Source of the DNA: Nemertoderma westbladi
Lineage: Eukaryota > Animalia > Xenacoelomorpha
DNA length: 42,594 nucleotides
Assembly (NCBI GenBank): GCA_032718475.1
Contig: JAUCBJ010008960.1
Coordinates: forward strand, 1 to 42,594
Direction: 5' to 3'
This document shows, in pieces, positions 8,265 to 42,385 of the stretch. The notes under the pieces are model-generated. The model had not been told where the DNA came from, did not search any database, and saw only the letters and a program-made list of their open reading frames with translations. Numbering within the stretch: the first letter of the stretch is position 1; the number at the start of each line of letters is the position of its first letter. A program made the position numbers and the translations under genes.

Positions 8265-8269
8265 ATGCA

Positions 8270-9170: not shown

Positions 9171-9747
9171 GTGATGCTACTTGACTGCTTGAAGGCCTCT
9201 AAATAGATTTTGGTGGGGTTGAAATGAACATAAGAACCCAGCGTTCATGTCAATATTGACATTAGATGTCAATATTGACATGCAATAAAACATATCATTA
9301 AAATTATTACAAACAACAATATACATTGGTTGGATTCAACAATATTTTAATTAAAATAGATATTCTCTTTACAAAAAAACATTTTCTACTTTTCAAATCA
9401 CAATATTTAAAAAATTTATGATCAAAACATGTCAATATTGACATCATGTCAATTTTGACATGGAACATGTCAATATTGACAACATGTCAATATTGACAAA
9501 GTGCCCGACTGATTGTTTGTGATGACTATGATGTTATCTCTTATTATTCTATTTATACTATTTGCAGATTTGTACTATTTCTTATGCTATACCACGGTAC
9601 AGCGTTAACGTAGACGTAGAAGTAGGCTATTTGAAATTATTGAATTTATTACTTATATTAGTAATTACTAACGTTTGTTAAATAAACTGAAGTTGGCCTA
9701 AATTATTTACTTTTTTTCTGAAACCCACCGTCGTTTAATATATCGCT

Positions 9748-11928
9748 ATGTCGGCCACGGACAAAGAAAGTTCTGATTATTACCTCGGGAAAGTCGACGA
9801 AATATATGATATAGTAAAAGGATTTAACTCTACCGATAAGGAAGAAGTTGAGAAGGCCAGTAAACGATCGGACGATTTAATGAGAGAACTCAAAGTCAAG
9901 GAGGAATTAAAAGATGCCAAGATCCGAAGGGAAGACGAACGGGAGAAGGAGTTGTGTCCGATGAATCGATCGGTTTTAAATCGCAATGCGTTAGACGGGA
10001 GTCCCGCGGATAGCGATACGGCTACGATGGATCCCACAGCGTTTATGGACGTTTTTGGCCGTGATGCCGAACGGAGAGCCGAAAAGAGGCGAATCGCCCG
10101 CGGAAAAGCCGATAAATTCCGTGCAATCGGAAACGAATATTTTAAAAGCGGAAATTACGAATCTGCTGTGGAGAGTTATTCGCAGTCATTGGAGGAGTTG
10201 AAGGATAATCACCACGCGTGGTGCAACAGAGCTCAATGTTATATAAAACTCGCAAGATTCGAAGCCGCTATCAGTGACTGCGATTGGGCGATCAGAAGTA
10301 AGATTCACTTCGGCAAGGCGTACATACATAAAGGTCGAGCTTTGATTGGTTTGGAGCGGTTAGATGAGGCCGAGGAGGTTTATAATAATGGTATAGAAGA
10401 ATGCCCTGACGACGCCGCTGCCATCCGTAAATATTTGAAAGATCTTAAAGAAACAATTCGGAGAATAAATTCTGAGAAATTAGCGAAAGAATCCTTTGAA
10501 AACAAAGAAGGTGTTAACGAGACCGTTGTTGGTGTTATTGAGAGAATATTTAATGAGGAAAATCAACACCTTTCGTACTACACCGGTGGAATGTCTATAT
10601 TAACTCGGTTAATAGTTGGAGACACGGAGAGGGTTCTATTCCGGTTAAACAATGGGTTCTCCATCCAGGAATCCAACTCTATCGTCGCTAGTTGTTTATC
10701 GGCCCGCGGGAATTTGAACGCCGATGAAATTAATTTAGTGAGATCCTGGTATTTGTTGCTGAAACAAGCTTGTTTCAACCATATTGACAATATTAAGGCC
10801 ATGTTCCTGTCAATTACTAACTTTCGACAGATTATTTTGGGGCATTTGTGTGCCGAGATTAATGTAGACGTTAAGCTGGCGATTTTAGATTTATTTCGAA
10901 TGTTGTCCGAATTCTCGGAAAGTAAAGATTTACTAATAGACAAACTGTCGCCGCAACTCCTATTTAATTGTTTATTCGAATTGATTGTTCAGGGCGATCA
11001 CGTATCTCCTGTCTCCGCCTCTATTTTCTCGAACATTTGCGGTTGTAAATCGTTTCGAGCCGGATTCGAACTCGAACCGACGGCGAGTTTGTTACCGGGG
11101 TTCGAGAGAATTCTCGGTTCCATAAGGAACAACGTCGAGGTTGCCTTATCGGTTCTCTCCGCCGCCGTTAATCTTTGTTCTAATAAAAGAATCCTCAAAT
11201 CGATGACCAGTAGATCTCAGTTTTGGGATTGTTGCATAAAAGGTCTGGCGAGTCTGAAGAACATCGGACGTCGTTCTGAGGAAGTTGTCCTCCTATTAAT
11301 TATTCTCTCCAACTTATCCCTCGAGAAATCGGCTTTGTGTAAAGAAAAAAGCACGTTTATAGTAACCGAGTTGAATTATTTGCTACTGAATTCCACCGAC
11401 GACAACTTGTTAACCCGTTGCGTAACGCTATTGTCGCGCGTTGTAATCACTGATGACGCTATCTCCGTAGCAACCGATAAAGACGACGTTGTATGCAAAT
11501 TGATGTCATTAGCTAAGAGTTGTTGTGATGATAGTGACGTCACTTTGCTTCCGCCTTGTATTAAAGTTTTGGCGCTTTTAAGTCAATCGAAGGGGAATGT
11601 TCAGCTACTTATCGGAAGACTGGATGATAAACTGAGATTCATACGAAGTTTGTTATCAACAACTTACAATGATTTGGTTGTCGGGAACGCTTGTTTGATT
11701 GTCGGTAATTGCGCCGCCGTTAGTAGCATAGCCGGTTGTCTTGGCGACACGGACGTTATTCAGTCGTTACTCTCGGTCGCCAGTAACCATAGCAGCGAGA
11801 AGGTTAGAAGCAATGCCGCTATCGCTTGTGGGAAGTTGGCCAGTTCGAAGCAACGGAAACACTTGGAGAACATGAGGAAACTCGATGGAATGGGGATACT
11901 CCACGGTTGTGTGAAGTTTATTGATTAA
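9748..11928 (+). CDS. TTC12: Tetratricopeptide repeat protein 12 (TPR + ARM-repeat axonemal dynein assembly factor), single coding exon
   Basis: 726-aa ORF with three TPRs (FRAIGNEYFKSGNYESAVESY; WCNRAQCYIKLARFEAAISDCDWAI; KAYIHKGRALIGL) followed by an ARM-like helical region. The C-terminus (VVGNACL...RSNAAIACGKL...MRKLDGMGILHGCVKFI) resembles TTC12 as I recall it, and the length fits. Confidence 0.85.
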   Translation: MSATDKESSDYYLGKVDEIYDIVKGFNSTDKEEVEKASKRSDDLMRELKVKEELKDAKIRREDEREKELCPMNRSVLNRNALDGSPADSDTATMDPTAFMDVFGRDAERRAEKRRIARGKADKFRAIGNEYFKSGNYESAVESYSQSLEELKDNHHAWCNRAQCYIKLARFEAAISDCDWAIRSKIHFGKAYIHKGRALIGLERLDEAEEVYNNGIEECPDDAAAIRKYLKDLKETIRRINSEKLAKESFENKEGVNETVVGVIERIFNEENQHLSYYTGGMSILTRLIVGDTERVLFRLNNGFSIQESNSIVASCLSARGNLNADEINLVRSWYLLLKQACFNHIDNIKAMFLSITNFRQIILGHLCAEINVDVKLAILDLFRMLSEFSESKDLLIDKLSPQLLFNCLFELIVQGDHVSPVSASIFSNICGCKSFRAGFELEPTASLLPGFERILGSIRNNVEVALSVLSAAVNLCSNKRILKSMTSRSQFWDCCIKGLASLKNIGRRSEEVVLLLIILSNLSLEKSALCKEKSTFIVTELNYLLLNSTDDNLLTRCVTLLSRVVITDDAISVATDKDDVVCKLMSLAKSCCDDSDVTLLPPCIKVLALLSQSKGNVQLLIGRLDDKLRFIRSLLSTTYNDLVVGNACLIVGNCAAVSSIAGCLGDTDVIQSLLSVASNHSSEKVRSNAAIACGKLASSKQRKHLENMRKLDGMGILHGCVKFID

Positions 11929-14862: not shown

Positions 14863-16112
14863 TCCGGATTGTAATTGCTATCATAAAACAGAAATAGTGT
14901 TTGACTTAGGAATAAACGGCGGTTCATATTATTTGATACAAAGTAACCGGTGGTTTAAAACTTACATTAATCGATTGGTTGAAAAATACATATAACCGTT
15001 GATTTAAAACACAGTAAACGGTGGTTGAAAACTTAGAATAACCGGTGGTTTACAAAAATTCAAATCACAGTTTGTTTACAACACAGTAAACGGTAGTGAT
15101 CAATAACATAATATCCAATCATGTAAACAATCTTAATACGTTTGTTAAGTACGTTTTTATGTAACATGTTTTATCAGGTAAATATTTAACAATTGTTTAA
15201 CATGATTTACATGTTTTACATTATTTATAACATAAATCAAGCATTCCCTTATATTTGTTGAATGCTACTATATCATGTTGAACAAAAATGTGTTATAAAT
15301 TTACAATGTATGTCTTAGTCTTAGGGATGTTTGAATAAACCGCCATAAGTTGACCGCTAATTCTGCAATTTGTTCATACTGTCATAGGCCTATCATAATT
15401 CAGTCATTTTTTGTGAAAGTGCCATTGCCATCCTGCGCTGTCCTGCAATCGCAGAATCGGTACCGGTACAATCCTGAAATTTGATTACAGTGATGTAGTG
15501 TATCACTGCCACTGGTACAGTAGTGGTACCGGTTGCCGGTAGTACAGAACAGTAGTACAGTACTGCTGTAGTAGGGCTGTGTAGGGTAGTGTACTCTTTT
15601 TGTTTTGTAGTTGTACCGGTACTATTTCTGTATTTCTTGGATTGTAGCTATATCTGTGTGTATATTACTGTATTATGAGTACGGTACCTGAGTACGGTAT
15701 ATTATATTTCTGTATTTGTTTATTATTTTGGTTTGGTTAGGCCTATGCAGGAATGCAGCTATGCGGTTGGTTAGTTCTGTAGTTCAGTAGTTGGCCAGGC
15801 CTTAACCCTAATTAAAACTGTCACATAGGCCAGTAGGCGTAACCGGGTGGTGAATTTTTAGGGGGGTCAGGGGTGGAAATTCTCTGCTACACCAGTACCT
15901 ACCGGTGTACCTACCAGTATCAGAGTATGCCGAGACCCGACACAACTTTAGGAGTAGGAAGGCCAATAAACGAAAGTTGTCCTCAACACCATCAACAGCT
16001 GCTAACGATAAAGCCGGTACTGAGGTACAGTTGCCTAGTAAAAGTTTAGATCAGGTTTCAGACATATCGCCATTGGATATACCGGTAGCTAAAGTTAATC
16101 TCAAGGAGCCAG

Positions 16113-16670
16113 ATGCAAGCAAAAGTGACCGAACGGAAAATAATAAATCGTCCTCCTTTGCTCTGCTTATCGGATGATGATAATATAGCTGAGGGATTGG
16201 AGATAGTCCCAAATCCACGAGGTGCAAAGAGGAAAGTAAGCATTTTTGATTCTTCTTCTGATGATGAATCCTCGGAATTATCTTATGGATCTAAATCGTC
16301 TAGTACCTGCAGTGGTCCATCTGATAGTCGAGATGAGGGTGACTATATTGGTGAGTTGGTTTGGGCGCGACAACGTATAACAAAACCATTCTGGCCTGCC
16401 CGAACTGAAAGAGCTCCAGAGGGTTCCGCAATGCCCAAGCCAAAGCATCCAGGGGACAACTTCAAGTGGATTTACTTCTTTGGTTCTAGCAATTTCTCAT
16501 GGATTAAAGACACTGGGGAATACATTGTTCCATATATTGAAAATCGCGAGCAGCATGGGAAAAGGAAGGCTTCGTCTACAGTCAAATTTCTAAAGGGACT
16601 TGATGACATTGATGAAGAATATACCGCAATGTCTGTTAGGAAAAATGATTGTCCATATCAGGAAGAGTGA
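16113..16670 (+). CDS. PWWP-domain protein (transposon cargo), 185 aa; N-terminus possibly frameshifted or spliced
   Basis: IGELVWARQRITKPFWPAR...WIYFFGSSNFSWI...IVPY...KFLKGLDDIDE matches the PWWP pattern (GDLVWAK..G.PWWPA...V.FFG..NF.W....L.PY + C-terminal helix). Preceded by an NLS-like AKRK and a Ser/Asp-rich tract. AATAAA at ~16788. Confidence 0.8.
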   Translation: MQAKVTERKIINRPPLLCLSDDDNIAEGLEIVPNPRGAKRKVSIFDSSSDDESSELSYGSKSSSTCSGPSDSRDEGDYIGELVWARQRITKPFWPARTERAPEGSAMPKPKHPGDNFKWIYFFGSSNFSWIKDTGEYIVPYIENREQHGKRKASSTVKFLKGLDDIDEEYTAMSVRKNDCPYQEE

Positions 16671-20858: not shown

Positions 20859-22364
20859 TCAGTAATTATTCTGATATTGGTATCGATAACTTTCGGCCAG
20901 AAGAATATAAAACACAAAATACGCCAAATTCATTAAAAAAAATGACGCTGGAAATAATATGCGGCTGAATTTATCTATCTTTATATGTAGGTTTTCCTCA
21001 TGTTTCTTTATTTTATCAACTTTTCTTTTGGTCATTATTTTAAGCTGCCTTTGGGCTTCTGATGTGGAAGAATTCACATCCCCGAAATAAGGACTGTTGC
21101 GTGTTATCAAAGGGTTGACAACATGACAACTACATGTGATTCCCAATTTCGTTCCGGTATGTAGATCTTTTATTTCCGTTTCATTACTGAATGTATCTCC
21201 ACCTCCATTTGAATTCACGCGACACCGTGTCATATTTTCTCTTTCTGTGCGTTGGGATGTTGTGCTGTTGTTTGGGATCATTTGCTCAGGTGGGTGAGGT
21301 GTCAACTTGAACTCTGCCACGTCTTTATCTTTAGCTGTGAAGTAATGGACAGCACTGAATATTAAAAGTGCTCCAAAAACATACACGAAGCATATTGCGA
21401 AGTAAACATCCATGGCTTTAATCTCACTTACTTTGGGCATTGAGTTATGTGTTGATCCAATTAGTGTTATTAGTGAAAGAACGGTTGTTACTGATATGGT
21501 TGCTCGTGCCGGTACTGCGTTGGAATTAACCCAGAAAGACGCCCAAGAGAGAGCGACAATGAAGCACGCAGGTAGATATATGCTGATAAGATAGTAGGTG
21601 AGTTCTCTGTGGAATACAAACACTACTTGAAGGCTAGAGAATTGTCCTGTAGAGAAAATTAGAGAATATTCTTTCGTGCTAAAACCTCTCAAGGAAAACT
21701 GAGAGAGTTTAAGATTTTCCACTGGCTCTACTGCGCTTTGAAATTCATCAGTACTGTCTTTCCACTTCAAGCGAACGTGGTCTGTTGTGTAGCCATAATT
21801 TTCCATTACCAAATTACAAGACTGATAATCCATAGGAAAATATGATAACGACATAGGGCATTTTGATATAACCGTAACTCTTGCGCTGTAGAGGATTTCA
21901 CCAGTTGGGTATATACGTAGCAACACATTAGGTGTCATGACGTCATGCTTGGCAGATAGTAACGATTCAGGGAAATAGGTGTCTGGCAACCACAGTTGAG
22001 GAAGAAATGATGAAGATATTGCCAATGGTTCCCCATCAGTTGTTGTGGCATTGAATGCAAGACGAGGGTCAGTCCAGTACTGTCGTAATGCAAAGTCGAT
22101 TCTAAAGTTCATATCCGTTTCACTGACAGGCCCAATAGAATCAACGCTTATAGTTACAAATATATCCAGAGGGTATTCGTACATACAAGGGCGAAGGCGA
22201 TTGTCATAGTTTTGAAGAAGAGAGTCCAATAGATTACTCAAATTGTGTCTGTGTTTGGTTGAGTTCACATTATTTATATTGGATGCAGCCAATGAGTTAG
22301 TTAGTTGAAACACGAATAGCAATAATAAATAATAAAAATTATTATACATTCCGATTAAAATCAT
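20859..22364 (-). CDS. Cys-loop ligand-gated anion channel subunit (GABA-A/glycine receptor-like), single coding exon
   Basis: 501 aa: signal peptide, YDNRLRP, LRQYWTDPRL, LWLPDTYF, Cys-loop CPMSLSYFPMDYQSC, loop B ENYGY, M2 VPARATISVTTVLSLITL (PAR anion motif), M4 IDKFSRILFP. Confidence 0.95.
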   Translation of the reverse strand: MILIGMYNNFYYLLLLFVFQLTNSLAASNINNVNSTKHRHNLSNLLDSLLQNYDNRLRPCMYEYPLDIFVTISVDSIGPVSETDMNFRIDFALRQYWTDPRLAFNATTTDGEPLAISSSFLPQLWLPDTYFPESLLSAKHDVMTPNVLLRIYPTGEILYSARVTVISKCPMSLSYFPMDYQSCNLVMENYGYTTDHVRLKWKDSTDEFQSAVEPVENLKLSQFSLRGFSTKEYSLIFSTGQFSSLQVVFVFHRELTYYLISIYLPACFIVALSWASFWVNSNAVPARATISVTTVLSLITLIGSTHNSMPKVSEIKAMDVYFAICFVYVFGALLIFSAVHYFTAKDKDVAEFKLTPHPPEQMIPNNSTTSQRTERENMTRCRVNSNGGGDTFSNETEIKDLHTGTKLGITCSCHVVNPLITRNSPYFGDVNSSTSEAQRQLKIMTKRKVDKIKKHEENLHIKIDKFSRILFPASFFLMNLAYFVFYILLAESYRYQYQNNY

Positions 22365-24330
22365 TTTTAAATATTGTTTATTATTTACTTAAGTAGTATT
22401 ATCTACAGTGCAATAAACGAATTATAGATCTATTAATTGTCTCAATGTGTCTTAATTTCGTGTCCTGGAAGCTGGAATGAATCCTTTTCTAAGATGAAAA
22501 AAAAATCGAGTTGATTCAGCTGTTCCATTATTCGCATTCACCGATATCTCTTAGTTTATCACAAAACCGAAATAAATATGGATCCCATCATTTTTGTCTT
22601 TTTATAATAAATAGATTGTTATAGTGCTTTTGTTACAATTGTACCCTTCTTTATGTTAAGTTTGCTGGTTAATCTAAACGGTGAGGGTAGTGACATATTG
22701 TTGTAACGAAGATTAAATTGTGCTGTGTTGTTAGGGGTAACACGAATGCCTGTACAGCTAGTTTTCTAACTTCATATCTCACAATACTACAAACCACCTA
22801 GGCTTTCTTTTGGTTCGTATCAGAATTGTGTATGATTGGCACAAGTGATCTTCGCGGTGGAAGCCAAGACGACTACTTACAGTATAATGCACAAACAATA
22901 CAATTAATACAGACAACAACGATAATGAAATTATTAACAAAAGTTTACATCTTTAAATGAAATACCCAACCAACATTTTAATAGATGATATTACAATATA
23001 TTGAACACTAGGCCTAATGTTATAATAAGCAACAGTGGCATATATAATATTAATAAAAAATAATAAAAAAAAAACCAATTAAAAAACTGGCGCAAGTTAT
23101 ATATATTAAGTGGATGGTGGATAGTTGAATAGCAAGGAAATAGCTAGGTTCTTGAGATGTGGCGATGATTTTCACAGCCAGCTAAGTACGGTTGAGTCGG
23201 GTCACAGTTGTTGTAACTATTCAACCTGAAATAAGTAATAGTTGGAGCAGCACTGGCTTTAGAAAGTTGTATGTCAATCAAATCAATGTATGATGATTAC
23301 CCAATGTTTTTCTCAACAACAGATAGAGATGCGCACTCAATTTGAAGCGTCATGGGGAGACCTTGGCGATAGCGTGCACTTTTCCTCGACCACCTTAATA
23401 TATAACTGGTATGTTATGAAATAGAAAAATTCTAAAAGTAATGAGTGATCATAATATTGCTGATGATTTAGGTAAATTGTCCAAAAACATAGGATGGTTC
23501 TCAAAGAAGTGTAGAAGCTGCAAAGACAAAAATTCTGCAACAACTTGAGTTCCCCCAGCAGCAGGTAATTGTATGTACGTCAGTGTGTTCTTTCTTTGGG
23601 TGGCCTGGTTGTTCACGTTGGGTTAGAAGGTGTTGATGATTAAATATAATATCAAGGCTTTAAAATTAATGAAATAAAATAATTAAAATTAAAATTCTAA
23701 AACGACTATTTGAAAACCAATTTGTATTTAATCACGTGTTGAATTATTATTTTTACGATTATTCACAATACAAAACGATACTAACATTTGTTGTACCACG
23801 GAATACAAATAGCATATATTTTTTCGAGGCCAATGTCCGAGAAAAAAGTTTTCAGGAAATGCGAATAACAAAGTGCCCAAAAAGTATTTACAAAATGAAT
23901 ATTAAAATGCTGATTGGTCAGAAATCTCTAGCTGCTATGAATAATGCACTTTCCAATTCCTTAGTTTAGTTTAGTCGCTATTTGTCCATGAAAGTGTGTT
24001 TATGAGATAAGAAGCGATCAATTTGAAGCTCCACGCATCATTGCACTAACGTCCATATCAGCAACAAATTGTAGATAACGAAGTGCGATTATTTAATATG
24101 GGATCTTGGACCCATCCTTAAGCACTAACGTATACTGTAGCGCCTCTAATGGGAAAACGGAGTGTTTTGGAGTAAAAATAAACCATGGGGATGAAACGCG
24201 CAATCTGGAGCGGCAAATTTATTCCTTTCAAATGTTGTTGGGTGAATTTATTCCAGGCGGCAGTAGTATAGCCATTGCTGTTATATGGGAGTCCCTGACG
24301 GGCTCTTACAGTATAAACACACAGGATCCC

Positions 24331-25363: not shown

Positions 25364-26819
25364 TGAGTGAAATGGTAGATTTGGAAATACTACTTGACAC
25401 CTTGTGTGAAATTTACCTCGTCATGGACTTACATCTGTCAATACCCCCTGAAACCAGCTATTGAAACCACTCATTCTCGCAAAAATCCCAATATATAAAT
25501 ATGGTATACTTGTACTTTATTCACGTCACATTTCATGCTGACTTGAAACTAAAGTTATTGTACTGGCCTACAGTTAAGCAGCAAATTGAGAACATAATAT
25601 GTACATAACACATATTTATATATTGTAAAGTAAAGTAAATATTGGTAAAAAATATAAAATTCCTCATATTAATTCTGGGCGCGGTTATCTCCCGAAATGT
25701 ACAATGGTTCAGTAAATACAAAGAGATACACATGAATATTATCACACAATAGGGATTAAAATATTATACAGTTGTTGAATCGCAATTCAAGTTATAACCA
25801 AACGAAATGTTTGTACAGGCGAAAGAAAAAAATTATACGTGTGTTTTTCCATATGTATTCATAATGTTTTTATGTTCTGATATTGAGGTTTGATATTTAG
25901 ATTACTATCAGTCTTCAGCAGCACACGTCTTGGATAAATCCTTCCACCAGCCACAAGTAATCACGGATCTGGCTCTTTCCCTGAAGTTGGTAGGTTTCAT
26001 CTTACAGCGAAAAGAGTAATTAATTGCTTGTCATGCCACAGCTAATATCATACTTTTATTAACAGCATTGATGGGGGCAATCTTTTCATTTACAATTTCA
26101 GACTGATTGGTGCAGTACAGTACAGTTGATGCAGCATTGATTTCCTCAACCCATACTCATGTTAGGCTTACGCTATTGCCACATTTCGGATTTGAATGAT
26201 CATGATACCATGATTACCATTACTTATGGGATCTTTTTTCTTTTCCTTGGTTTAAATTTCAAAAAATGTGTATACATCTTGCCTTTAACCATTTAATCAC
26301 TGACAAGTGCCTCTCCATCACTTTAAGATTTGAATGATTTGTTTTCCCTACAGGAGGAGGTTTGTAAATACAGGGTCGGCGGTAATCATCCGCTGGTCAT
26401 TCTGCGCATTGACAGTCACAGACAGAGTTCCTATCATTTTTCTGAAATAGGATATTATCAATATGGGGAGACTCATGATAACTGTGAACTGTAAGTTTAC
26501 CTTGTTTTACCTTGACCAAATTTCGGTCAACATGGCTGCTGTACGTACACCCAAGGTAGTCCTCAAGAATATCAAAAAATAATCACACCCAGAAACATCG
26601 CGCAACACAAATTTCTGTGAGTGAGGAAGACAGAAACTTTTTGCATTTTCAATAAGTTCTATTCACAGCAACATTTTTAAATACTTTTATTAACAGCTAA
26701 TATTTGCAAAATAAAAAAAATCTAAGAGTTATTGTGGGAATTCATCAATGTTTAAGATGGTTTTTTTATGAGTTTATAATCATCACCACATTATGTATAA
26801 TCCTGCCTGCCTATATGGG

Positions 26820-29258
26820 AATGGGTATCCCCATCTATATCTCTGGAAATGGATTGTTTTCGGTTGGAACCCAGTTGAAGAAGCGAACTGGAAAGCTATG
26901 GACTCATAGTGGACCCAGTGGTCACAAGTCCCAGATAGACCATATTCTGTTTCGTAGGAAATACAGGAGCTCTATACAAGACTGTAATGCATTTACACTT
27001 CGACCCTTCTGCAGTGATCACCGCTTTATTGTGGCCAAGGTAAGACTTAGTATGCGTGCTAGCAGAACAACGAAATCTGCCTTGCCGCGGCATGACTGGT
27101 CCTCTCTGTTGCAACAGCCAAGTGTGAGATCCAGCTTCACAATACAGCTGAGCAACAGGTATGAGGCTCTTGCCTCTGAGGCGGCAGATCACTGTGAGGG
27201 CTATACTGCCTTCACAGAGGCAGTTAAGTTAGCAGCTGCAGAAACAGTTCCTGTATACCCTCGAAACAGGAAAAGGGCCCCCTGGACTGACAACAAAATT
27301 CAGAAATGCCGAAATGACCTCTATAAGGCGCAGAAAGAGTCCAGACTCAAACAGACTACAGCGACCAAGAATGCAGTTAAGGCTGCATCTAGGTCCCTGA
27401 ACGTGAACAGGCAGTACTCTGTTAATCTACAGGAGCTAATAAACCAACAAGTTGATGCCATCAATGATGCTGACGGCAGCAGGCAATCATCCCAGGCATA
27501 GAAATCGATCAACTTGCTTACTGTGCGGAAAAGCCAACCAACCACCAAGGTTAAGGCTGAATTACCCGCCGATCGCCTCAATGGTTGGAAGGCCCACTTT
27601 GAAAAGCTCCTCAATAATGACAGGGTATTGCCTGATAACTTTATAGAAGTAAAAGTGTCTGAGTCTGTACTCCCAGATATTCCCATTGGCAATATCTCCT
27701 TTCCAGAAGTGAAGGCTGCTGCAAAGAGCATTAAGACCAATCGTGCCAGTGGAGTAGATGGTGTTCCCCCTGAGGTCTTTAAAATACCTGAGTGTTTAAA
27801 GCTCATCTATCCCATCATAGTAGACATGTACCGAACAACAAGAGTCCCACAAGAAATGAAAACAAATAAGTTGGTGCCAGTTCCCAAGAAGGGCAACCTA
27901 ACACTCTATGGTTCTTTTCGGGGAATCTCATTGATCTCGATTGCTGCAAAGCTATAAAATAGAATTCTATTAAATCGCATCAGGGATCCCATCGAGAGAC
28001 TGCTCCGTGGAAATCAGAATGGGTTCCGTAAAGGTCGTGGGACCATGGAGCCCATTTTGGCACTTAGAAGGACAATTGAAGAGTTATCAAAATAGAAAGA
28101 CAGGCATCTGGTGTTATCTTTGTTGACTTCTTCAAGGCCTTTAATTCAGTCTCTCGCTCACGTATGTTCAGCATACTTTCATTATATCGGATTCCTGATG
28201 AAATTATTGCAGCAATCAGATCAGTATACGTTGGTTCGACAACATTTGTGTCTACTGTTGATGGTGACACAGAACCATTTGAAGTGTTATGGGGCGTCCT
28301 CCAGGGAGACACACTTGCACCCTTCTTGATCATAATTGTGGTTGACTCTGTTCTACGCATGTCCTTAGATCATCATAATGATGATGGGGTGATGATAACT
28401 CCACCTACTGGCTCCAGAAGTCCAGGAAATCCTGCCAAGTACCTAACTGATCTAGACTTTGCTGATGACTTAGGAGTACTCTCAGAATCACTGGAGGGAG
28501 CACAACGGCTCCTCAGCTCATTAGAACATGCTGTTTCTAGTGTTGGTCTTTTTATTAACTCCAGAAAGACCAACATTTTGACAGTTAACTTGGAAAGTCC
28601 TCAGCAAGTCTCTGATCGGCTGAGCATAAGCTCAAAGGATGGTATGCTTGAGCATGTGGACGACTTCTGTTACCTGGGATCATGGATCCGGAAGTAAGGG
28701 AATGGCATGGGCAGCCTTGAATAGGCTTTCCAGGATTTGGAAGTCACCGAGAATTAATCGGAAACTTAAGGTCCGATTATTTAGAGCAGCAGTAGTTCCA
28801 GTACTCCTCTATGGGAGTCCATGCTGGGCTCTAACTGCTGAGGACACCAAATCTCTGGATGGCACCATCACAAGAATGCTACGCCGGGTTCATTGTGTCA
28901 AGTACAATGCACACATCTCCAACTAGACACTATATAACATTGGAGGTGTCTCATTGGTTCCCCCAAGCTTGACACTAGAAAAAAATCGCCAACGCTTTGC
29001 AGGACATTGCTATCGCCGTGAGGACCATATGCATAATATGTGCATAATCTTGTACTTTGGCAGCCTCATGGAGTGAATAAGCATGGTGGACAGCCCATGA
29101 CTTTCTTGAGACGCATCTTAAAGGACACTGGCCTTGAAGATGCGGATGATCTAGCAAATGTCATGGGTGATAGGGAGTTGTGGCGGTGCAATTTTGTCGA
29201 CAAGCCGGCACAGCATTCTTAAAAATTCAGCTGCAATGCAGCATGCCGATCCTAGTAG
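26820..29258 (+). mobile_element. 5'-truncated RTE-like non-LTR retrotransposon (EN C-terminus + RT), inactivated
   Basis: KLWTH...KSQIDHIL...SDH (APE endonuclease end); FRGISLISIAAKL; GVLQGDTLAPF; LDFADDL; FCYLGS. Several stops and frameshifts. (TAG)n tail. 12-bp TSD tgcctatatggg at 26808-26819 and 29259-29270. Confidence 0.93.
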
Positions 29259-31762: not shown

Positions 31763-33205
31763 TCAGGGGTAAGGATGGTCAAAGTTGAAACAGCTGCTCT
31801 TAGCGTATTGAAGATACAATACAAAATACGCGATATTGAAAACAACAAAGGTAAGAGGAAATACTCTTCTGCTGCAGTAATCCATCTTCTGAAAGGATTT
31901 CACTTCGGGTTTCTTTATAAACTGTCCACTCTTTAAGCCAACTGGAGGTTTGATTTCAGACGTATTACAACTCACATCACGCAAATTGTGACAGCTGCCT
32001 GTATCGGAGTAGTAGGCTTGGTCACTGGAATGTTGTTCCACTTTTGCTAAAACGGCAGAAATCGAAATCGTCTTTATAGATTCACCTGTATGCGAACGCC
32101 GTCGTACCTTGTTTTGTGGTTGTTGAAGAGAACTAGTTGTATCTGCCGTAATTGGATCTGGGGGTTTACGTGCTGCATCAGAGACTGCTTGTTCTTCTTT
32201 GCGTTTAGATTGAATGGCTAAAAAATTCACGACACTGAATATGATAACTCCACCAAATACGTATAGGAAGCAGAAAGCAAAGTAAACAGAAAGCGCAGTA
32301 ACCTCACTTACTCTTGGTGTTATGTTAGATACTGACCCAATAAGTGTTATTAGTGAAAGTACCGTGGTCACTGCGATCTTCACTCGAGCATTTTCCGAAA
32401 ATGCATCAACCCAAAAAGCCGTCCATGATAATGTGACAATTACAATGGCAGGTAGATATAAGCGGCAGAAATAGTAGGTGAGTTGTCTGTGGAATACAAA
32501 CATTACATTAAGGTTAGAGTACACCCCAGTCGAGTATTCAGCAGACAATGGTTCTGTAGTGTAATCGAATCCTATAAAGGAAAATTGGGAGAGTTTGATA
32601 TTTGGAATTGGTACTACTGCACTTCCAAACTTCTTTGTATTTATATTCCACTTAAAGAGGAGGTCTTTCGTAGTGTATCCAAAGCTTTCCAGTAACAAAC
32701 TGCAGTTTTGATAATCCATAGGGAAATATTTCAGTGCCAAAGGACATCTGGCAGTAACCATAACTCTTGAGCTGTAGAGGACTTGACCACTGGGATATAA
32801 GCGTAGCAGGACAGTAGATGAATTTTGCTTGGTAGAACGCAACGAATCTGGAAAATAGGTGTCTGGTAGCCACAGCCGAGTAAGAAACGATGATATTGAG
32901 AAAGGTTTCCCTCCAGTCAAATTAGCATCGAATTTAAGGCGCGGGTCAGTCCAGTACTGTCGTAAAGAGAAGTCTATTCTGAAGTTCATATCCGTCTCAC
33001 TGATAGGTCCTATAGAATCCATACTTATGGAAACATAAATTATCAGTTGTTTGTTAAGATTAGGACGAAGACGATTGTCATAGTGTTTGAGATTGTGTTC
33101 CAATATACTACTCAGATCAGTATCGTTCACATCATTATTATTGGAAGTAGCCAACGAGTTAGTTAGATGAAATATTATTACAAATAATACATTAATTATA
33201 TACAT
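31763..33205 (-). CDS. Cys-loop ligand-gated channel subunit (GABA-A/glycine receptor-like), paralogue of 20859-22364, single coding exon
   Basis: 480 aa: signal peptide, YDNRLRP, LWLPDTYF, Cys-loop CPLALKYFPMDYQNC, ESFGY, M2 ENARVKIAVTTVLSLITL, M4 MDYCSRRVFP. Confidence 0.95.
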   Translation of the reverse strand: MYIINVLFVIIFHLTNSLATSNNNDVNDTDLSSILEHNLKHYDNRLRPNLNKQLIIYVSISMDSIGPISETDMNFRIDFSLRQYWTDPRLKFDANLTGGKPFSISSFLTRLWLPDTYFPDSLRSTKQNSSTVLLRLYPSGQVLYSSRVMVTARCPLALKYFPMDYQNCSLLLESFGYTTKDLLFKWNINTKKFGSAVVPIPNIKLSQFSFIGFDYTTEPLSAEYSTGVYSNLNVMFVFHRQLTYYFCRLYLPAIVIVTLSWTAFWVDAFSENARVKIAVTTVLSLITLIGSVSNITPRVSEVTALSVYFAFCFLYVFGGVIIFSVVNFLAIQSKRKEEQAVSDAARKPPDPITADTTSSLQQPQNKVRRRSHTGESIKTISISAVLAKVEQHSSDQAYYSDTGSCHNLRDVSCNTSEIKPPVGLKSGQFIKKPEVKSFQKMDYCSRRVFPLTFVVFNIAYFVLYLQYAKSSCFNFDHPYP

Positions 33206-34364
33206 ATCAATACTAATTATATCGTCATTATTTTTTCATTTATTTACATTATTATAATAGCGTACCGTACAGTTTATTAATATTTTATATCAATGTTCTG
33301 GAAAACAAAATCCTGGAAACACAATGATACAACTCTGCATTTTTCATACAGTTAATTTTTAGGAATCTCCCTTAAAATACAACATCCATTTTTTTAGCAA
33401 GTCGGACCCCCCCCCCCCCCTCCCCCCAATTTTTTTTACAAATTTCAATCAAATGCAACGAATTTTGGTTTGAAGTTAGTTCGAAACCTTTCTTACTGCT
33501 GGCCTGGCCCGATTTTTAAAGTAGCTAAATCAAGCCATTAAAAAATGAGAATTTTTTGCACTTTTTAACTTTATTTTCTTTTGCCGTTACTTTTCGACTT
33601 TGGAATGTAATAGATATCATTAGAACCGCTTTCACCTGCAGACTCCAAATCTGAAAATCCGTTATAATCGTTATAAATTTCACGAATTTAAAATATAACA
33701 TTATTTTAACCTTTTAACATATTTTAAACTTATGCATCTGTATTTAAATTTATTCCAAAATTGTAAGTGTAACATTAATTACTCAACGCCGTTAGTATTA
33801 ACAGCGAGTTGTTATTTAGCACTTTACAACTTTTGATGATATTACGTCATTGTATTGGCCTGTTCATTTAGTATTGTATTTGGTGTTATCAGTTAAGTAA
33901 TGTCCCATTAGTGGACATTACAACACGCCGTCCTTGGTTACCACGTATACAATAGTTTGTATTTTCCTGACAGCCAGATAGGCCTACTGTATTACCTACA
34001 GGTTGGCGGGGTATAGCTATTAATAACCAGTAGCTATAAACTATTAGCATGGCTCCAAAGATAACTTATTTATAACATAATTTATGTCATTTTTACATTT
34101 ATTTATACAGTAACTAATATAATTTGTACAGTCTTCTATCACTATCACTTATAATGTATATGTACAATCATTTCGTAATTTTAAAATTTTGGAATAAAAC
34201 TACATACATACTTGTTGCAAAGTACTTTACAGTGTTCTGATCCTCGTGGCTTTATCTTCACTCACCACTAACGTTCGTTCGTGTAACAAAGCACTAAGAT
34301 CATCCCACTCTAAAGTGCTTAAGTACTGTACTTTACACACAAGTATGTAAATAGTTATTACATT

Positions 34365-34577: not shown

Positions 34578-35965
34578 CGGTCAAAGCCGTCCGACTTATT
34601 CCACAGTAATTAATAGCCAACTGAACATAATTAATATTGCTTAAGAGTTTTATACACATTGATTAGAAAGCTTATTATACATTCCTACCTACATGTTGAC
34701 CTCCCAATAGATACGCGCTAATAGGACATGTGCTGTCCTACCATTGGTTGATTATCTCCCTCTGCCACTCCCTATTTCCTCTGGCCCTAAGCTAGCTTCT
34801 TCCCTGATATATGTTGGTATCTATCTCCAAGCTGGCATTGTATTGCCCTTCATTCTTCCTTGGTATGCAATGTTATATTGGATATAACATTGCATACTTA
34901 GCTGTGATTCATAAATCACTTTGTTCCCCACTCTCTCACTGGGTGGTGTGCAGCGGATAGATTCGCTAACAACATTCATAGCATCATAGGTATATATTAC
35001 ACAGTACTTCCGTACACCCACCAATTTTTATACTAGGCCTAAATTAGCTATTTTTTTTATAAATTTTTTCAAATTTATAAGTTGTTTTATAAATTTTTGT
35101 CAATTTTTATATCAATTCAGCTCACTCCATCTGAGCTTTTTTTACCTAATTATTAATAATGTTCTAGAATAAATCTTTTATTCTAGAAATTTTATAAAAT
35201 GTTAAAAATTCATATATATATATATACTAGCAACAGCTCAACTCGCCATATCATATACATTTTTATTTATTTTATGTGGAATTAATTTCGCACTACCAAA
35301 TCGCCAAGGGGACATATTTTCAACTATGTACCGGTATACTGATATATGTATAGTACTACACATATATAACAGATATATGATATACTGTATATCAGTGCGA
35401 CATTATTTCTGAGTATGTCGTCCCTACGCCAAACATTTTACTAGGTATACTGTATCTATTACTGTATATCCAGTATGTCACCGAGTCATTCTAAATATAA
35501 TTACATGCCGTCATTCGAATACATACTATAAAAACTATTTTACAATTCTAAAACTTACAAAAATTAAATAGGTCAAAATCAAACCAGCATCCTTCACAAT
35601 CATAACCCGACGCGTTATCCACTATGCTAAATTAGCATGATAAGAAAGTGTGTATAATTAACATACTCTCCTGTTTCAAGGTTGTTCTAGAATGTTTAAT
35701 TGCATAACATAACTACAAATAATTCCCCACAAATGAAAACACACAAATATAGCTTTTACTGACCTCGTTATGTTATTTCAAACAAAATCACTTGTGACGT
35801 AAAAAGCTATAAAGTGCTACGCCAGCCGGTTTAGGCCCTGCCCGTCTATCTGCCATCCCTGGTACTGACGGCACTGCCAACTACCAGATAGAAGTATAGG
35901 TCTGTCTGTGTAGTACCGGTACAGCAGAACGTGTTGCGTACCGATGACCGATCTGTTGTTGTTAC

Positions 35966-36082
35966 TTCTTCTGACTGTGTTTGCGTTATATATATATCTA
36001 TGCTTACTCGTGTAATTGATCAATATAGTTAACCCGCTTCACTCACCACATTGTTCCTTACGCTATTGCTTCACTTCTGGCG
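35966..36082 (+). repeat. 5' copy of the 117-bp direct repeat of the retroelement
   Basis: Matches 41226-41342 at offset 5260. The last 63 bp are identical and the first part is diverged. Followed by TGGTGTCA (PBS-like). Confidence 0.92.
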
Positions 36083-36192
36083 TGGTGTCACCGTGTGCTT
36101 CGTTTCCCACTCCTCGCCATCTACTACAACAACAGATCCATCCACTCAGCCCTCCTTACGTCACAGACTTACGCTACCTACTTACCGTTATC

Positions 36193-39100
36193 ATGGCGTT
36201 TAACGGCTCACTGAAGCCCCCCAAGCTGGCTCCCTCAATAAATCTGAGACGATCAACTCCTTTGAGGTTTGGCGCCACAACATAACTTATTCGCTTGCGC
36301 TCCAACCTCAATTTGCGCAGTTTACGGTCCCGGGCACAACCTGGTTGCGCCACACCCGCGCTATACCCTTCCGCGGTTTTGCCGACGACCCGGACACTGT
36401 GGTCCCAGCCGACCGCCGTACTGCCCTTCAAAAGACCACGGCTCTAGATCTTATGCTCGGTCAGATCGCCAATTACGCCCCCGTTATCGCACGTAACTCG
36501 ATCATTCGAGACTCCACGTCCTTGCCCTCCATATGGCAGGCCATACGCCTCCATTACGGCTTCCAAGCGACTGGAGCTCATTTCCTCTCCTTCTCCGATA
36601 TCTCCCTCCTTCACGAGGAGCGCCCCGAAGACCTCTTCCAGCGTTTATCAGCTTTCGTGGACGATAATTTACTCCGACGGGACGGTGGAATTTCCCACCA
36701 CGGAATTCTCCCCGATGACGACGAGGAGCTGTCCCCCTCTCTCGAGAACTTCGTTGTACTCATATGGCTCCGCCTTATCCACCCGGATCTCCCTCGATTG
36801 GTTCAACAACGGTATGGCACGGAGCTCCGGTCCCGTACGCTGGCCAGTATCAAACCCGAGATCTCCCAGGCTCTGTCGTCTCTTCTCGACGAGCTCCACA
36901 CTGCCGCGGAAGTGCGTACCTTCCGTGCCCAGACGCGTCGGACCCCACCTACATCCTCAGGTCTCGGTCCGAGTCCCACTGGCCGCGGACTTTCCCGTTC
37001 CGTTCGCCGGTGTCCCCTCTGCTCCCAGACTAAACGCACTCCCACCAACCACTTTCTCAGTGCATGCCCATTCCTTCCCCCTGCTGACAAGCGCTTTATC
37101 TCACGTGCCCATCTCGTCTACGTCGATGGCGACAACGACAACGACGCTTTCTATGAACAACCGGATAACGATAACGACTCCGTCGCCAGTCCACCTCCCG
37201 ATCCGACGGTTAATATCGTCGCTGTACGCCCGAGTCCCACCTTTACAGCGCGTTATAAAGGTAAACCCATCCAGGTTCTCCTCGATTGCGGCGCCGAATC
37301 CGACCTCATTTCACACGACGCTGCACTCCGACTCGGCGTTCCGATCTCGCGTGGGTCCCGCCAGATCCCGATCGGGGCCGACGGTTCCCCTGTTTCAGGT
37401 GTAGTTGGGGAGAGTTCCTTCTCCCTCACCCATAACGACCTTCAGTTTAGCTTCCGTGGACTCGTTGTCGACAGCCTCAACGTTCCCCTACTCGCTGGCG
37501 TTCCGTTCCTATCCACCAATGATATTGGTATCCGTCCGGCCCAGTCGCTGATTACCTTCGCGGATGGCAGTTCCATCCGGTACCCCCCGGCAGGTCATCC
37601 CCGACCCACTATCCGTCGGACGACGACCCAGATTCTGCGCGCCCCCATACGATCGTCCATTCTTCTCCCCGGCGACGCCCTCACATTACAGCTTCCAGCC
37701 CATCTCTCGGATTCCGACTCTCTCCTTGTGACACCCCATGTGATTAACCAACGGTCGCACGTAACTCCCCCCAAGCCTTGGTTCCCCCCCATGCAGCTCC
37801 AACCCGCAGCCGGTTCCATTACCATTCCAAACTCTGCTCCCTACCCCATCTTCATTCAACGGAACTCCCATGTCTGCTCCGCCCTACCCACTGCAGCTAC
37901 CCCCATGAAACAACTTGAACAGTCCTTACCCTGTCCCGAAATCCGCTCTGCTTCCGTTGTCTCCCATGACCCTCCACCTATAAAGGCAGTCCAGATCGAC
38001 CCACAGGGCATCCTCTCTTACCGTGAGCGTGCTGCCTTCCACGATCTACTCGAGGAGTTTTCTGACGTCTTCGATCCCACGTATCCCGGATACAATGGGT
38101 CTGCCGGCCCATTCGAAGCTGTCGTCAACGTGACCCCTACGTTGCCACCTCAACGTAAGGGTCGTGTACCGCAATACTCCCGTGACCGACTCGTTGAACT
38201 GCAGGAGAAGTTTGACTCTCTCGAGCGGCTTGGCGTCTTCATTCGCCCAGAACTAGCCGGTGTCACCATAGAGTACTTGAACCCAAGCTTCCTTGTCGCT
38301 AAACCCAATGGAGGAACTCGGCTCGTTACGGCGTTCACAGAGATTGCCCAGTATTGTAAGCCCCAACCCGCACTCCTCCCAGATGTTGAATCCACCATTC
38401 GAGCCCTGGGTCGGTTCAAGTTCCTCGTTAAGGCAGACCTCACGAGCGCCTTTTACCAAATCCCACTCCATCGCAACTCCATGCGTTTCTGCGGCGTATC
38501 CACACCATTTCGTGGTGTCCGTGTCTACCGCCGCTGTGCCATGGGCATGCCCGGCAGCGAAACGGCTCTCGAGGAGTTGATGTCTCGCGTCCTCGGCGAT
38601 CTCCTCGTCCAGGGATCCGTCGTCAAACTCGCCGATGATATCTACTGCGGTGGCGATACCATCCCCGAACTCCTCCTCAATTTCGCCGCCCTCCTCCGCG
38701 CCCTACACCTTGCCGGGTTGCGTTTGTCCCCAAAGAAAACCATCATTTGCCCCCAAACTACCACCATCCTTGGTTGGGTATGGTCTAGCGGTTCCTTATC
38801 TGCTTCCCCACATATCACAGCCGCCTTATCCCACTGTCCTACACCATCCACCGTCCGCGACCTACGGTCGTTCCTCGGTTCCTACAAGGTTCTCTCCCGC
38901 GTACTCCCCCGGTGTTCTGCCCTTATCTCTCCGCTCGAGGCCCTCCTTACCCCCAAGGCCGGCGACCCTGTCGCTTGGACCCCCGATCTCGAGTCTACCT
39001 TTCGACGATCCCAAGCCGCCCTACAATCCTGCAGGTCAGTAACGATCCCGCGTCCTACTGACGAACTCTTCCTTGTCACCGACGCCGCCTCGTCCGTCGA

Positions 39101-41102
39101 TGGTCTAGGTGCAGTCCTCTACGCGAAACGTTCCAAAGAATTACTCATCGCCGGGTTTTATTCCTGCAAGCTCAAGGCCCACCAACATACATGGCTTCCT
39201 TGCGAGTTGGAGGCACTCGCTATAGCGGCCTCCGTTCAACATTTCCTCCCATATCTTATCGCCTCTTCACGCCAACCACACGTTCTCACGGACAGTAAAC
39301 CCTGTGTCGAGGCATTCAAAAAGTTGTCCCGCGGCGCATATTCGAATAGCCCACGTCTATCGACGTTCCTCGCCAGCGCCAGCCAGGCCCGTGTCACAGT
39401 ATCCCACATCAAGGGTTCTACCAACCTCCCGGCAGACTTCCAAAGCCGCAACGTTCAGCCGTGCTCTCTACAGTCATGCCAGGTGTGCGCGTTCGTCGCC
39501 TCCGCTATAGAGTCGCCTATTGTCCGTCTCGTTGCAAAGTCAACCACACCCTCCTCCTTACCACACGACAACCATTCCCCAATGTCCCTCGTTAACACTG
39601 TCACTACCCCCCTCCCGAATTGCTTTATCGCTTCCGATAGCCCGAATCCCCGTCCCCTTTACGCCAGTCGTCCTGCGTGGCTCGCCACACAACGCGAGTG
39701 CCCCGACCTAATCCGTGTCGCCGAAAACCTCGCATCCGGCACCCGTCCCTCCAGACGCGATACACATAGCCATGATATCAAGCGTTACCTGGGCGTATGT
39801 TCTCTGTTATCCTCTGGCCTTGTCGTAGTCCATCGACAGCGTCCCTTCACGTCACCCTATGACGTCATCGTCGTTCCCCGCTCTGCTCTTATTGGCTTAC
39901 TAACCTCACTACACATCGAACTCCAACACCCTTCGCGTTCCCAGCTGCGTACCACCTTTTCCCGATATTTCTACGCCCTGGACCTCGACCGCGCTCTCAA
40001 TGAGATTACCGTGCAATGTCACCAGTGCGTCGCCCTCTCAACTGCCCCCAAGCGTACCGTACCCCAGTCATCCATTGATCCGCCCCCCATCGTCGGCCTA
40101 TCATTCGCTGCCGACGTCCTGCGCCGCCATTCCCAACGTATCCTCCTGTTACGGGAAACGGTATCGTCGTACTCAAATGCCGTTATACTTCCAGATGAAC
40201 AGAGCGATACCCTACGTGATGCCTTAATCACCCTTGCCTTTGGCATGTGCCCCCTTAGTGGCCCCCCGGCTATCATCCGCACCGACCCAGCCCCAGGGTT
40301 CCAAGCCCTCGCCAACGACCCAATCCTCCTATCCCACCACCTCCTCCTTGAGATCGGATCCCGCAAGAATGTAAACAAAAACCCAGTCGCCGAACACGCT
40401 ATCGGCGAACTACTCACCGAACTCCTCCGACTCCGTCCCACTGGCGGCCCATTCTCATCCACATCTCTCGCAATCGCTGTTGCAAACCTTAACTCTCGTC
40501 TACGCTCCCCTGGCCTATCCGCCCGCGAGATTTTATTCCAGCGGGACCAATACACGGGCGAACAGATTCCTCTCGTCGATACCGAGCTCATAGCCTCCCA
40601 ACATGAGCGACGCCTAGCCAACCACCCCTCCAGCGCCCGCTCTAAGACCCCCCACCCTACGGTACTCCCAGGATTTACCTCCCTCAAGGTGGGCGACCTC
40701 GTCCATTTATATGCCGATTCCCCCCGTGCCGGCGCTCGTCCACGATATATCGTCAGCGCTATCGATGACACGTGGTGTTCCGTTCGTAAATTCGCGGGCA
40801 GCCAGCTCCGCGCTCACGCATACCGCGTCCGCCAGGCCGATTGTTTCCTTGTACCTCGTCTCCAACCGCCATCCACGTCATACACTGAGGATTCTGATTC
40901 CGAGACTGATGAGTGTTCCACACTCCACGCTCATGCTACACCCGGCGTGGCACCCCCTGTCGCGTTCCAACCAGCCCTAGAGTCCACCCCACAGTTAGAC
41001 GACGTCCCTGAGCAGCCATTGCACAGTGCTTCTTCATCTGACCCACCCAACACCCGTCCTCGTAGAGAACGCCGCCCTCCGCAATACTACGGGTTTCCCT
41101 GA
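36193..41102 (+). CDS. Gag-protease-RT-RNaseH-integrase polyprotein (one -1 frameshift near 36205-36230; ORF track gives 36345-41102)
   Basis: Zn knuckle CPLC-x9-H-x4-C; protease LLDCGAE; RT KADLTSAFYQIPL / AMGMPGS / KLADDIY; RNase H LVTDAA...ELEALA...TDSKP...ADFQSR; integrase H..H..CHQC, FAADV, and RTD-x35-E. The long frame is open from 36204 but has no early ATG; the ATG at 36193 is in another frame. Confidence 0.92.
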
Positions 41103-41225
41103 CGCACCTCCCACGTTCCCGGACAGTTGCACCTTGTCACATGACTCGCCCCAACGCAGCCTGTCTCCAGTTCCATTCACAGTTCTGAATTTGTTCTACT
41201 TACATACGTCCTACCCGACTTATGA

Positions 41226-41342
41226 TTCTTCTGACTGTTATTGCTATATATATATTCCTATACTTATTCGTGTAATTGGTCAATATAGTTAACCCGCTTC
41301 ACTCACCACATTGTTCCTTACGCTATTGCTTCACTTCTGGCG
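41226..41342 (+). repeat. 3' copy of the 117-bp direct repeat, forming the element's right terminus
   Basis: Matches 35966-36082; ends cacttctggcg followed by cta. Confidence 0.92.
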
Positions 41343-41412
41343 CTATTTTATGAACAATGACTTATACTGTACTTAATATTTTATCAATAATATAATAGAT
41401 TCTAATAGCACT

Positions 41413-41975
41413 AAGAGTCCCACAAGAAATGAAAACAAATAAGTTGGTGCCAGTACCCAAGAAGGGCAACCTAACACTCTATGGTTCTTCTCGGGGAATC
41501 TCATTGATCTCGATTGCTGCAAAGCTATACAATAGAATTATATTAAATCGCATCAGGGATCCCATTGCATTGAGAGACTGCTCCGTGGAAATCAGAATGG
41601 GTTCCGTAAAGGTCGTGGGACCATGGAGCCCATTTTGGCACTTAGAAGGATAATTGAAGAGTTATCAAAAAAGAAAGACAGGCATCTCTGGCTGTTATCT
41701 TTGTTGATTTCTTCAAGGCCTTTGATTCAGTCTCTCGCTCACGTATGTTCAGCATACTTTCATTATATGGGATTCCAGATGAAATTATTGCAGCAATCAG
41801 ATCAGTATACGATGGTTCGACAACATTTGTGTCTACTGTTGATGGTGACACAGAACCATTTGAAGTGTTATGTTAAGTGTTAGGGAGTTGTGGCGGCGCA
41901 ATTTTGTCGACAAGCCGGAACAGCATTCTTAAAAATGCAGCTGCAATGCAGCATGCCTATCCTAGTAGTAGTAGT
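41413..41975 (+). mobile_element. Third RTE-like LINE copy, 5'-truncated and internally deleted
   Basis: Matches 27840-28291, then jumps through a short filler (ttaagtgt) to the equivalent of 29171-29258. (TAG)4 tail. Confidence 0.92.
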
Positions 41976-42229: not shown

Positions 42230-42385
42230 AACTCCCAAAAGACAACCAAAAACCTAAAATAATCAAAAAGAACCCAAAAGAACCACCCAATAAATACAGT
42301 AACAAATAGAACCCAAAAGAAACCCTAAACACCCAAAAGAACCCAATAGAACCCCAAATAACTCCCAAAACACCCAAATAACTAA
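42230..42385. repeat. Degenerate ~10-bp A/C-rich tandem repeat (acccaaaaga / acccaaata)
   Basis: Directly visible low-complexity periodicity. Confidence 0.7.

Follow-up and report, generated by a model that had tools for sequence, protein, structure and literature searches.

The window analyzed here, the 42,594 nucleotides (nt) of contig JAUCBJ010008960.1 (assembly GCA_032718475.1) of Nemertoderma westbladi (Xenacoelomorpha), harbors at 35817..41345 a retroelement with a DDE integrase. This element is very probably a young, broken copy of a Troyka element whose family likely possesses two full long terminal repeats (LTRs) and a polypurine tract (PPT), and the 3′ end of the copy was probably damaged after insertion. 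In a preliminary description, the element had been given a non-LTR architecture, with ends regenerated by a route such as that of DIRS/Ngaro elements. Full LTRs and a PPT are likely for the family because sister copies extend beyond the point at which the window copy breaks off, a purine tract precedes the LTR, the LTR is assembled without a branch and at greater depth than the internal sequence, and related loci display the same organization.

Sister copies were read from assembled contigs of public sequencing runs aligned to the element. Runs X1, X2 and X3, which come from two studies under one species label, were informative, with 54, 94 and 207 contig records placed across the three; run X5 covers almost none of the element.

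Anatomy and classification of the window copy

The terminal features, including the target site duplications (TSDs), are listed by position and strand.

35817..35819 (+): left TSD, CTA; from the sequence, with flanks contiguous in paralogues of the host repeat
35820..36082 (+): complete 5′ LTR, 263 nt; termini and 100-400 bp length as in PMC12440569; X2 contig 35844-36069 unbranched, with 0 differences
35987..35996 (+): TATA-like run, putative U3 promoter from the position of the motif
36022 (+): AATATA, candidate poly(A) signal from the position of the motif
36083..36090 (+): sequence resembling a primer-binding site (PBS), TGGTGTCA, abutting the LTR
41103..41223 (+): remaining 3′ untranslated region (UTR), identical to high-depth X1 and X3 contigs as far as 41223
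41223..41226 (no strand): breakpoint, from contigs; sisters run on for at least 338 other letters, and the copy has no PPT and lacks the opening 146 nt of the 3′ LTR
41226..41279 (+): partial 3′ LTR, variant segment with 9 differences from the 5′ LTR in 54 nt, 7 of them common to another LTR variant in the runs
41280..41342 (+): partial 3′ LTR, 63 nt that match the last part of the 5′ LTR exactly, terminating in TGGCG
41343..41345 (+): right TSD, CTA

Direct reading of the window confirmed the anatomy described previously. The left CTA is followed by CGCCAG from 35820, CTGGCG stops at 41342 immediately before the right CTA, and the sole long repeat pairs 35966-36082 with 41226-41342 (117 nt, 92% identity), the 9 mismatches being confined to the first 54 nt and the remaining 63 nt being identical. 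No copy of the first 146 nt of the element was found in the 3′ region (the best local alignment scored 17, and shuffled sequence averaged 20.5), and a search for a PPT between the stop of the open reading frame (ORF) at 41102 and the 3′ repeat gave a best purine count of 8/16. A non-LTR architecture is nevertheless not supported: CG…CG ends are the published signature of Troyka elements, and 35820-36082 is a complete LTR of 263 nt (CGCCA…TGGCG). Directly 3′ of this LTR lies the TGG-starting PBS-like site (36083-36090), a putative match to tRNA-Leu. A CGCAA at 41080, 263 nt before the right end, was considered as the start of a diverged full 3′ LTR and was rejected, since its similarity is at the shuffle level and it lies inside the ORF and internally in sister contigs. 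GC content climbs from ~0.32-0.37 to 0.56-0.58 across the element, and an imperfect inverted repeat at 35880-35915, in the left part of the LTR, may form a hairpin (score 34; shuffle maximum 32).

An X1 contig passes from the LTR into a different flank immediately after 36082; therefore, the terminal G is assigned to the LTR, which gives a 3-bp TSD. The alternative parse raised earlier, a 4-bp TSD (GCTA) with asymmetric ends, is rejected on the basis of this contig and of the termination of the 5′ LTR in TGGCG before the PBS. The 3-bp TSD is read at one site, where three letters match by chance with a probability of ~1/64 or higher. The element interrupts a host repeat, and paralogous empty copies join the flanks at 35699-41342 in three runs and at 35802-41344 in two, so that no large flank was lost. 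This comparison, which had been proposed as an empty-site check, shows contiguity across the insertion and is equally compatible with the 3-bp and 4-bp parses.

The coding features of the element are as follows.

36193..36240 (+): only ATG ahead of the long frame, out of frame (offset 1); high-depth contigs of three runs differ from the window here
36204..41102 (+): single Gag-Pol frame, 1632 amino acids (aa) from stop to stop; ORF with the domain order zinc knuckle, protease (PR), reverse transcriptase (RT), RNase H (RH), integrase (IN)
37011..37067 (+): zinc knuckle CX2CX9HX4C, from the motif
37245..37565 (+): aspartic protease with LDCG motif; Pfam Asp_protease_2, E 2e-4, just below the curated cut-off
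38361..38777 (+): RT core with LADD at 38628-38639 (residue 809); Pfam RVT_1, E 7e-10
39054..39458 (+): RNase H, end approximate; Pfam RT_RNaseH, E 3e-11
39912..40403 (+): integrase with HHCC zinc motif and D1304, D1361 and E1397, forming D,D(35)E; Pfam Integrase_H2C2, E 0.012, below the cut-off

Troyka elements are defined by CG…CG termini, 3-bp TSDs, a CX2CX8-10HX4C knuckle, a single Gag-Pol and the lack of a GPF/Y motif, and CGCCA and TGGCG occur in 573/603 and 522/603 of their LTRs, respectively (Kojima, 2025; PMC12440569). Kuafuorterviruses (Gong and Han, 2024; PMC11673190) are, according to the portion of that paper available, the same lineage, having IADD, VADD or LADD as the RT motif and counting the Repbase Troyka elements as members. 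Judged from its termini, TSD, knuckle, LADD and domain order, the window element is a Troyka (Kuafuortervirus) copy, and the earlier suggestion that a 3-bp TSD could point to Troyka was right. It resembles published Troyka elements in CGCCA…TGGCG, the 3-bp TSD, the LTR of 263 nt, the single Gag-Pol, the domain order, the knuckle, and the absence of an envelope frame and of GPY/F at its usual place; it differs in that the PPT is missing, the 3′ LTR is 146 nt short and gag has a frameshift. Two complete LTRs of 100-400 bp characterize Troyka, whereas the 3′ LTR of the window copy retains 117/263 nt. With Kuafuorterviruses, as far as the accessible part of PMC11673190 describes them, it shares LADD in place of YXDD, a size of 5-6 kb and the order Gag-PR-RT-RH-IN, and its RT motifs agree by eye with the RT rows published there.

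The protein comparisons are consistent with this assignment. A protein search scored 7992 candidates and retained 843 relatives, the best 120 being 51-55% identical over residues 600-1500; animal-named proteins among these 120 come from corals, an anemone and an abalone. Among 75 aligned proteins, the knuckle has the form CX2CX8-10HX4C in 75/75 and CX2CX4HX4C in 0/75, the RT motif is LADD in 45, IADD in 29 and neither in 1, and GPF/Y occurs within the last 220 residues in 3/75. In the window protein, no GPF/Y motif was found past residue 1440; a GPF stands at 1415, just behind the catalytic core. The integrase residues are conserved in the 12 alignment rows shown, and neither the ORF list nor the Pfam search revealed an envelope frame in the element. 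In a tree of the 75 proteins, which has neither an outgroup nor a Repbase-named member, the window element sits on a long branch, with at most 61% identity over RT-RNase H.

Ty3/gypsy elements (Metaviridae) share the domain order and RT-RNase H similarity (E 1e-22 to Ty3; PDB 4ol8, 7q5b), and Ty3 provides the nearest solved RT, with 83 bits over 416 aa compared with >1000 bits over 901 aa for Troyka-type proteins. Unlike Ty3/gypsy, however, the window element has no TG…CA termini, 4-6 bp TSD, CX2CX4HX4C or YXDD. The likeness to DIRS/Ngaro is confined to the look of partly repeated ends: DIRS/Ngaro elements encode a tyrosine recombinase and have neither a protease nor a DDE integrase (PMC12440569), whereas the window element encodes both of these enzymes and is flanked by a TSD, and no tyrosine recombinase was found in it.

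Probable full LTRs and priming signals in the family and its relatives

X1 record 8 (depth 229) is identical to the window, with 0 differences, up to 41223 and then continues for 338 letters that fit nowhere in the window. X3 record 24 (depth 181.5) likewise shows 0 differences up to 41223, followed by 236 letters without a place in the window, and the two extensions, which come from different studies, begin alike. At the other end of the element, an X3 contig carries 237 letters before 35820, with 20/22 purines ahead of a final TTG, and an X1 loose end at the same place, in which three contigs are mixed, shares its last 10 letters with the X3 contig. X2 record 9 runs through 35844-36069 without a branch at 35966, at a depth of 801 compared with 416 for the next internal contig, and in X1 the depth of the U3 side is ~650, assuming the listed flank depth, compared with 229-285 inside the element, contig depth not being equivalent to copy number. 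It had been stated in advance that complete LTRs in other copies would count against an element without them. In substance the contigs agree with this: the sisters carry sequence behind 41223 that is missing here, a purine tract stands ahead of the LTR, and the left 146 nt act like part of an LTR present twice. The ends are CG…CG, not the TG…CA anticipated for such copies.

Other joints were present in the runs. An X1 joint that skips 647 nt (39739-40387) at a depth of 100, against ~255-285 for the main contigs, is likely a multi-copy derivative without most of the integrase. An X2 joint of depth 49 skips 5015 nt (36077-41093) with 16 other letters between, its shorter side measuring only 30 letters, and is possibly a very short non-autonomous derivative.

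Related loci were collected with the alignment of 75 proteins as the query, which yielded 79, 2 and 1 loci, or 82 in all (L001-L082), 80 of 187 confirmed metagenome stretches being kept. The loci are not independent, and the PPT sites comprise 33 distinct starts, a few of which are probably due to chance. With a purine tract defined as at least 14/16, such a tract precedes CGCCA in 46/82 loci, compared with 4/82 on the reverse strand, the commonest triplet before CGCCA being TTG (7/33 PPT sites). TGGCG is directly followed by TGG in 48/82 loci, compared with 13/82 on the reverse strand. The site abutting TGGCG behind the 5′ LTR is TGGTGGCAGCG in 20/40 distinct cases, and presumably resembles the complement of the 3′ end of tRNA-Leu. 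The main text of PMC12440569 contains no PBS, PPT or tRNA term. Two reverse-oriented entries in the available part of the Kuafuortervirus supplement (PMC11673190) carry, next to the LTR, a stretch complementary to a purine tract. No stretch in the metagenome contigs contained the exact 25-nt LTR pattern, and locus searches with single proteins, which returned 66 and 2 candidate stretches, recovered no relative.

Both LTR ends were found in nine loci. A full 3′ LTR behind a purine tract is present in six of these (L009, L010, L018, L023, L025 and L048), and L035 and L071, which are contig-end overlaps, are uninformative. L018 has a shortened 5′ LTR; L009, L010, L023 and L048 have full LTRs with unmatched flanks and are probably assembly mosaics; the TSD match of L025 was discarded as spurious. 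The remaining locus, L013 (167-5679), is unrelated and has a full 168-nt 5′ LTR, an 88-nt 3′ repeat, CAG on both sides and a broken frame; it shows no purine tract (9/16), and no second copy of its family was found among the 82 loci. Because only odd copies assemble through both flanks, short-read assemblies favor odd copies.

Troyka-like sequences also occur under bacterial metagenome-assembled genomes (a cyanobacterium, Poribacteria and Ca. Thiodiazotropha) and in a viral contig set (loci L080, L081 and L082; proteins P0065 and P0082). They are probably animal DNA carried into the assemblies.

Origin of the broken 3′ end

Compared with six X1 contigs, the window copy differs by 5 letters and one gap in 4869, and is thus young; hence, the 9 differences in 54 nt between its repeats are not the result of ageing. 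An X1 variant contig (depth 59, 35886-36082, 21 differences from the LTR) agrees with the 3′ repeat at 7/9 of the variant sites and has a different letter at the remaining 2, and an X3 variant contig (depth 74) has 4 of the 9 in common. These variant LTRs also possess the start of U3, since they extend upstream of 35966. The surviving 3′ piece therefore derives from an LTR of a diverged type that has been joined to internal sequence of the main type, making a patched or recombinant end. The frameshift at the start of gag breaks the window copy, which is predicted to be dead because the PPT is missing as well.

The family would replicate by the standard route, in which a tRNA-primed minus strand starts from the site at 36083 and jumps to R at the 3′ end, the plus strand is then primed at the PPT, and the DDE integrase inserts the product with a 3-bp stagger. 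For the window copy, we put at about even the chance that a 3′ break was repaired after insertion with a patch from an ectopic, diverged LTR. Such a repair would remove the end of the UTR, the PPT and 146 nt of U3 (at least 480 nt in all) and leave the termini and the TSD intact, so that the deletion, the patch and the intact TSD could be accounted for in one event. Elsewhere, copies whose LTRs are partly deleted are frequent, an example being TARE1, for which the portion of the report available gives 145/354 copies (PMC3701649).

Several points weigh against this interpretation. The structure of the family is read from contigs of runs, and among those listed there is no second full copy with both flanks; none joins 41223 to the purine tract, a link that is drawn from two loose ends, and none bridges the window's own 41223-41226 junction. 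Depth in X2 slopes from 416 to 78 along the element. The junction at 41223-41226 shows no clear microhomology, and the matching one-sided lesion with a TSD in L013 is a hint that such lesions recur by a common route instead of arising from random damage.

A less probable origin, which deserves attention all the same, is a lesion during reverse transcription in a particle that contained RNAs of two LTR types. In this case, the minus strong-stop strand would jump to the variant RNA, copy ~54 nt of U3 and move over to the main RNA at 41223, so that the PPT is bypassed; plus strong-stop DNA from a second molecule would provide the full left LTR, and integration would proceed at normal ends. The switch from variant to identical letters at 36019/36020 falls ~25-30 nt past the TATA-like run, close to the position predicted for the U3/R border, and the confinement of all 9 mismatches to the first 54/117 positions has a P of 6e-4 with a boundary chosen post hoc, a test by halves giving P 0.0013. 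The youth of the copy and the parallel case of L013 also agree with this route, and in fission yeast elements, breakpoints near the U3-R junction are ascribed, in the part of the study at hand, to minus-strand transfer between co-packaged RNAs (10.1101/2022.12.06.519325). However, the second strand transfer of retroviruses was reported to be intramolecular in studies cited by a review, as far as its available text goes (PMC12789967). Furthermore, of the 21 differences in the variant LTR contig, the 17 listed likewise go no further than 36019, so that the boundary may only mirror a conserved R-U5, and the transcription start here is a predicted one.

An extension of this idea, rather doubtful at present, is that the window represents the first Troyka lineage of Xenacoelomorpha together with a recurrent by-product, in which particles of mixed LTR type integrate copies that lack the PPT and have lost U3 on one side and yet have perfect ends and TSD. 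If true, such a by-product, seen in the window copy and L013, would show intermolecular plus-strand transfer in the Troyka superfamily.

An assembly chimera of a main-type copy and a variant LTR is improbable. The lack of a bridging contig noted above and the position of the element within a host repeat would allow it, but the two copies of the TSD agree, and paralogous empty copies run straight from one flank into the other; moreover, a mis-join needs homology, and the junction has none.

Least credible of all, with hardly any weight left, is a lineage with split, partly duplicated ends, no PPT, a circular or tandem intermediate and a DDE integrase, as the preliminary description proposed: the anatomy of the window copy and of L013 would fit it, as would three plus-oriented entries, cut by LTRharvest, in the accessible part of the Kuafuortervirus supplement (first 400 letters), which start without CGCCA, but the high-depth contigs diverge from the window at 41223, the sequence ahead of 35820 includes a purine tract, the leftmost 146 nt act like part of an LTR present in two copies, with neither a branch nor a depth step at 35966 in X2, in six of the nine two-ended related loci a purine tract is followed by a full 3′ LTR, L013 being the only one that resembles the window copy, and the end-to-end joint expected of such an intermediate is absent among the contigs listed.

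Host range, neighboring sequences and significance

The window contains two genes for Cys-loop receptors of the ligand-gated channel kind, each an unbroken frame (20859-22388 and 31763-33235, both on the minus strand), which are 50% identical to each other. The best match of both is an acoel protein, and acoels account for 4 of the first 6 matches (35-41% identity). In a quick tree of 34 rows, for which 32 of 120 listed matches were chosen by hand for spread and in which branches are long and several phyla are unsampled, the two genes cluster with four proteins from acoels at an SH-aLRT of 100, and a fifth acoel paralogue falls elsewhere. It is therefore likely that the host range of Troyka extends to Xenacoelomorpha. 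This phylum is absent from Table 1 in the main text of PMC12440569, a term search of the available part of the Kuafuortervirus supplement (PMC11673190) found no acoel or Xenacoelomorpha terms, and a literature search, the scope of which did not include Repbase Reports, found no paper pairing acoels with Troyka.

Other sequences in the window include a 729-aa single-frame protein with TPR plus HEAT repeats (9739-11928, plus strand), for which 2 weak matches of no use in placing the host and no close relative were found, and a PWWP-domain frame (16089-16670, plus strand). Fragments of a non-LTR retrotransposon lie at 26701-28697 and 41413-41883; the latter matches 27840-27927 at 98% across the 88 nt that were aligned, and its depth in the runs is very high. 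A long tandem array of short units occupies 7140-8445, and an array with a 10-nt period lies near the end of the window (42238-42377).

The analysis removes the claimed new route of replication: the anomalous end probably reflects damage to a single member of a superfamily whose descriptions date from 2008, 2024 and 2025. Single truncated copies can mimic elements with split repeats. The Troyka family to which this copy belongs looks young and multi-copy, and the related loci provide the first tally, within this analysis, of the priming signals of Troyka elements, namely, a site that begins with TGG right next to the LTR and, a few bases ahead of CGCCA, a purine tract.

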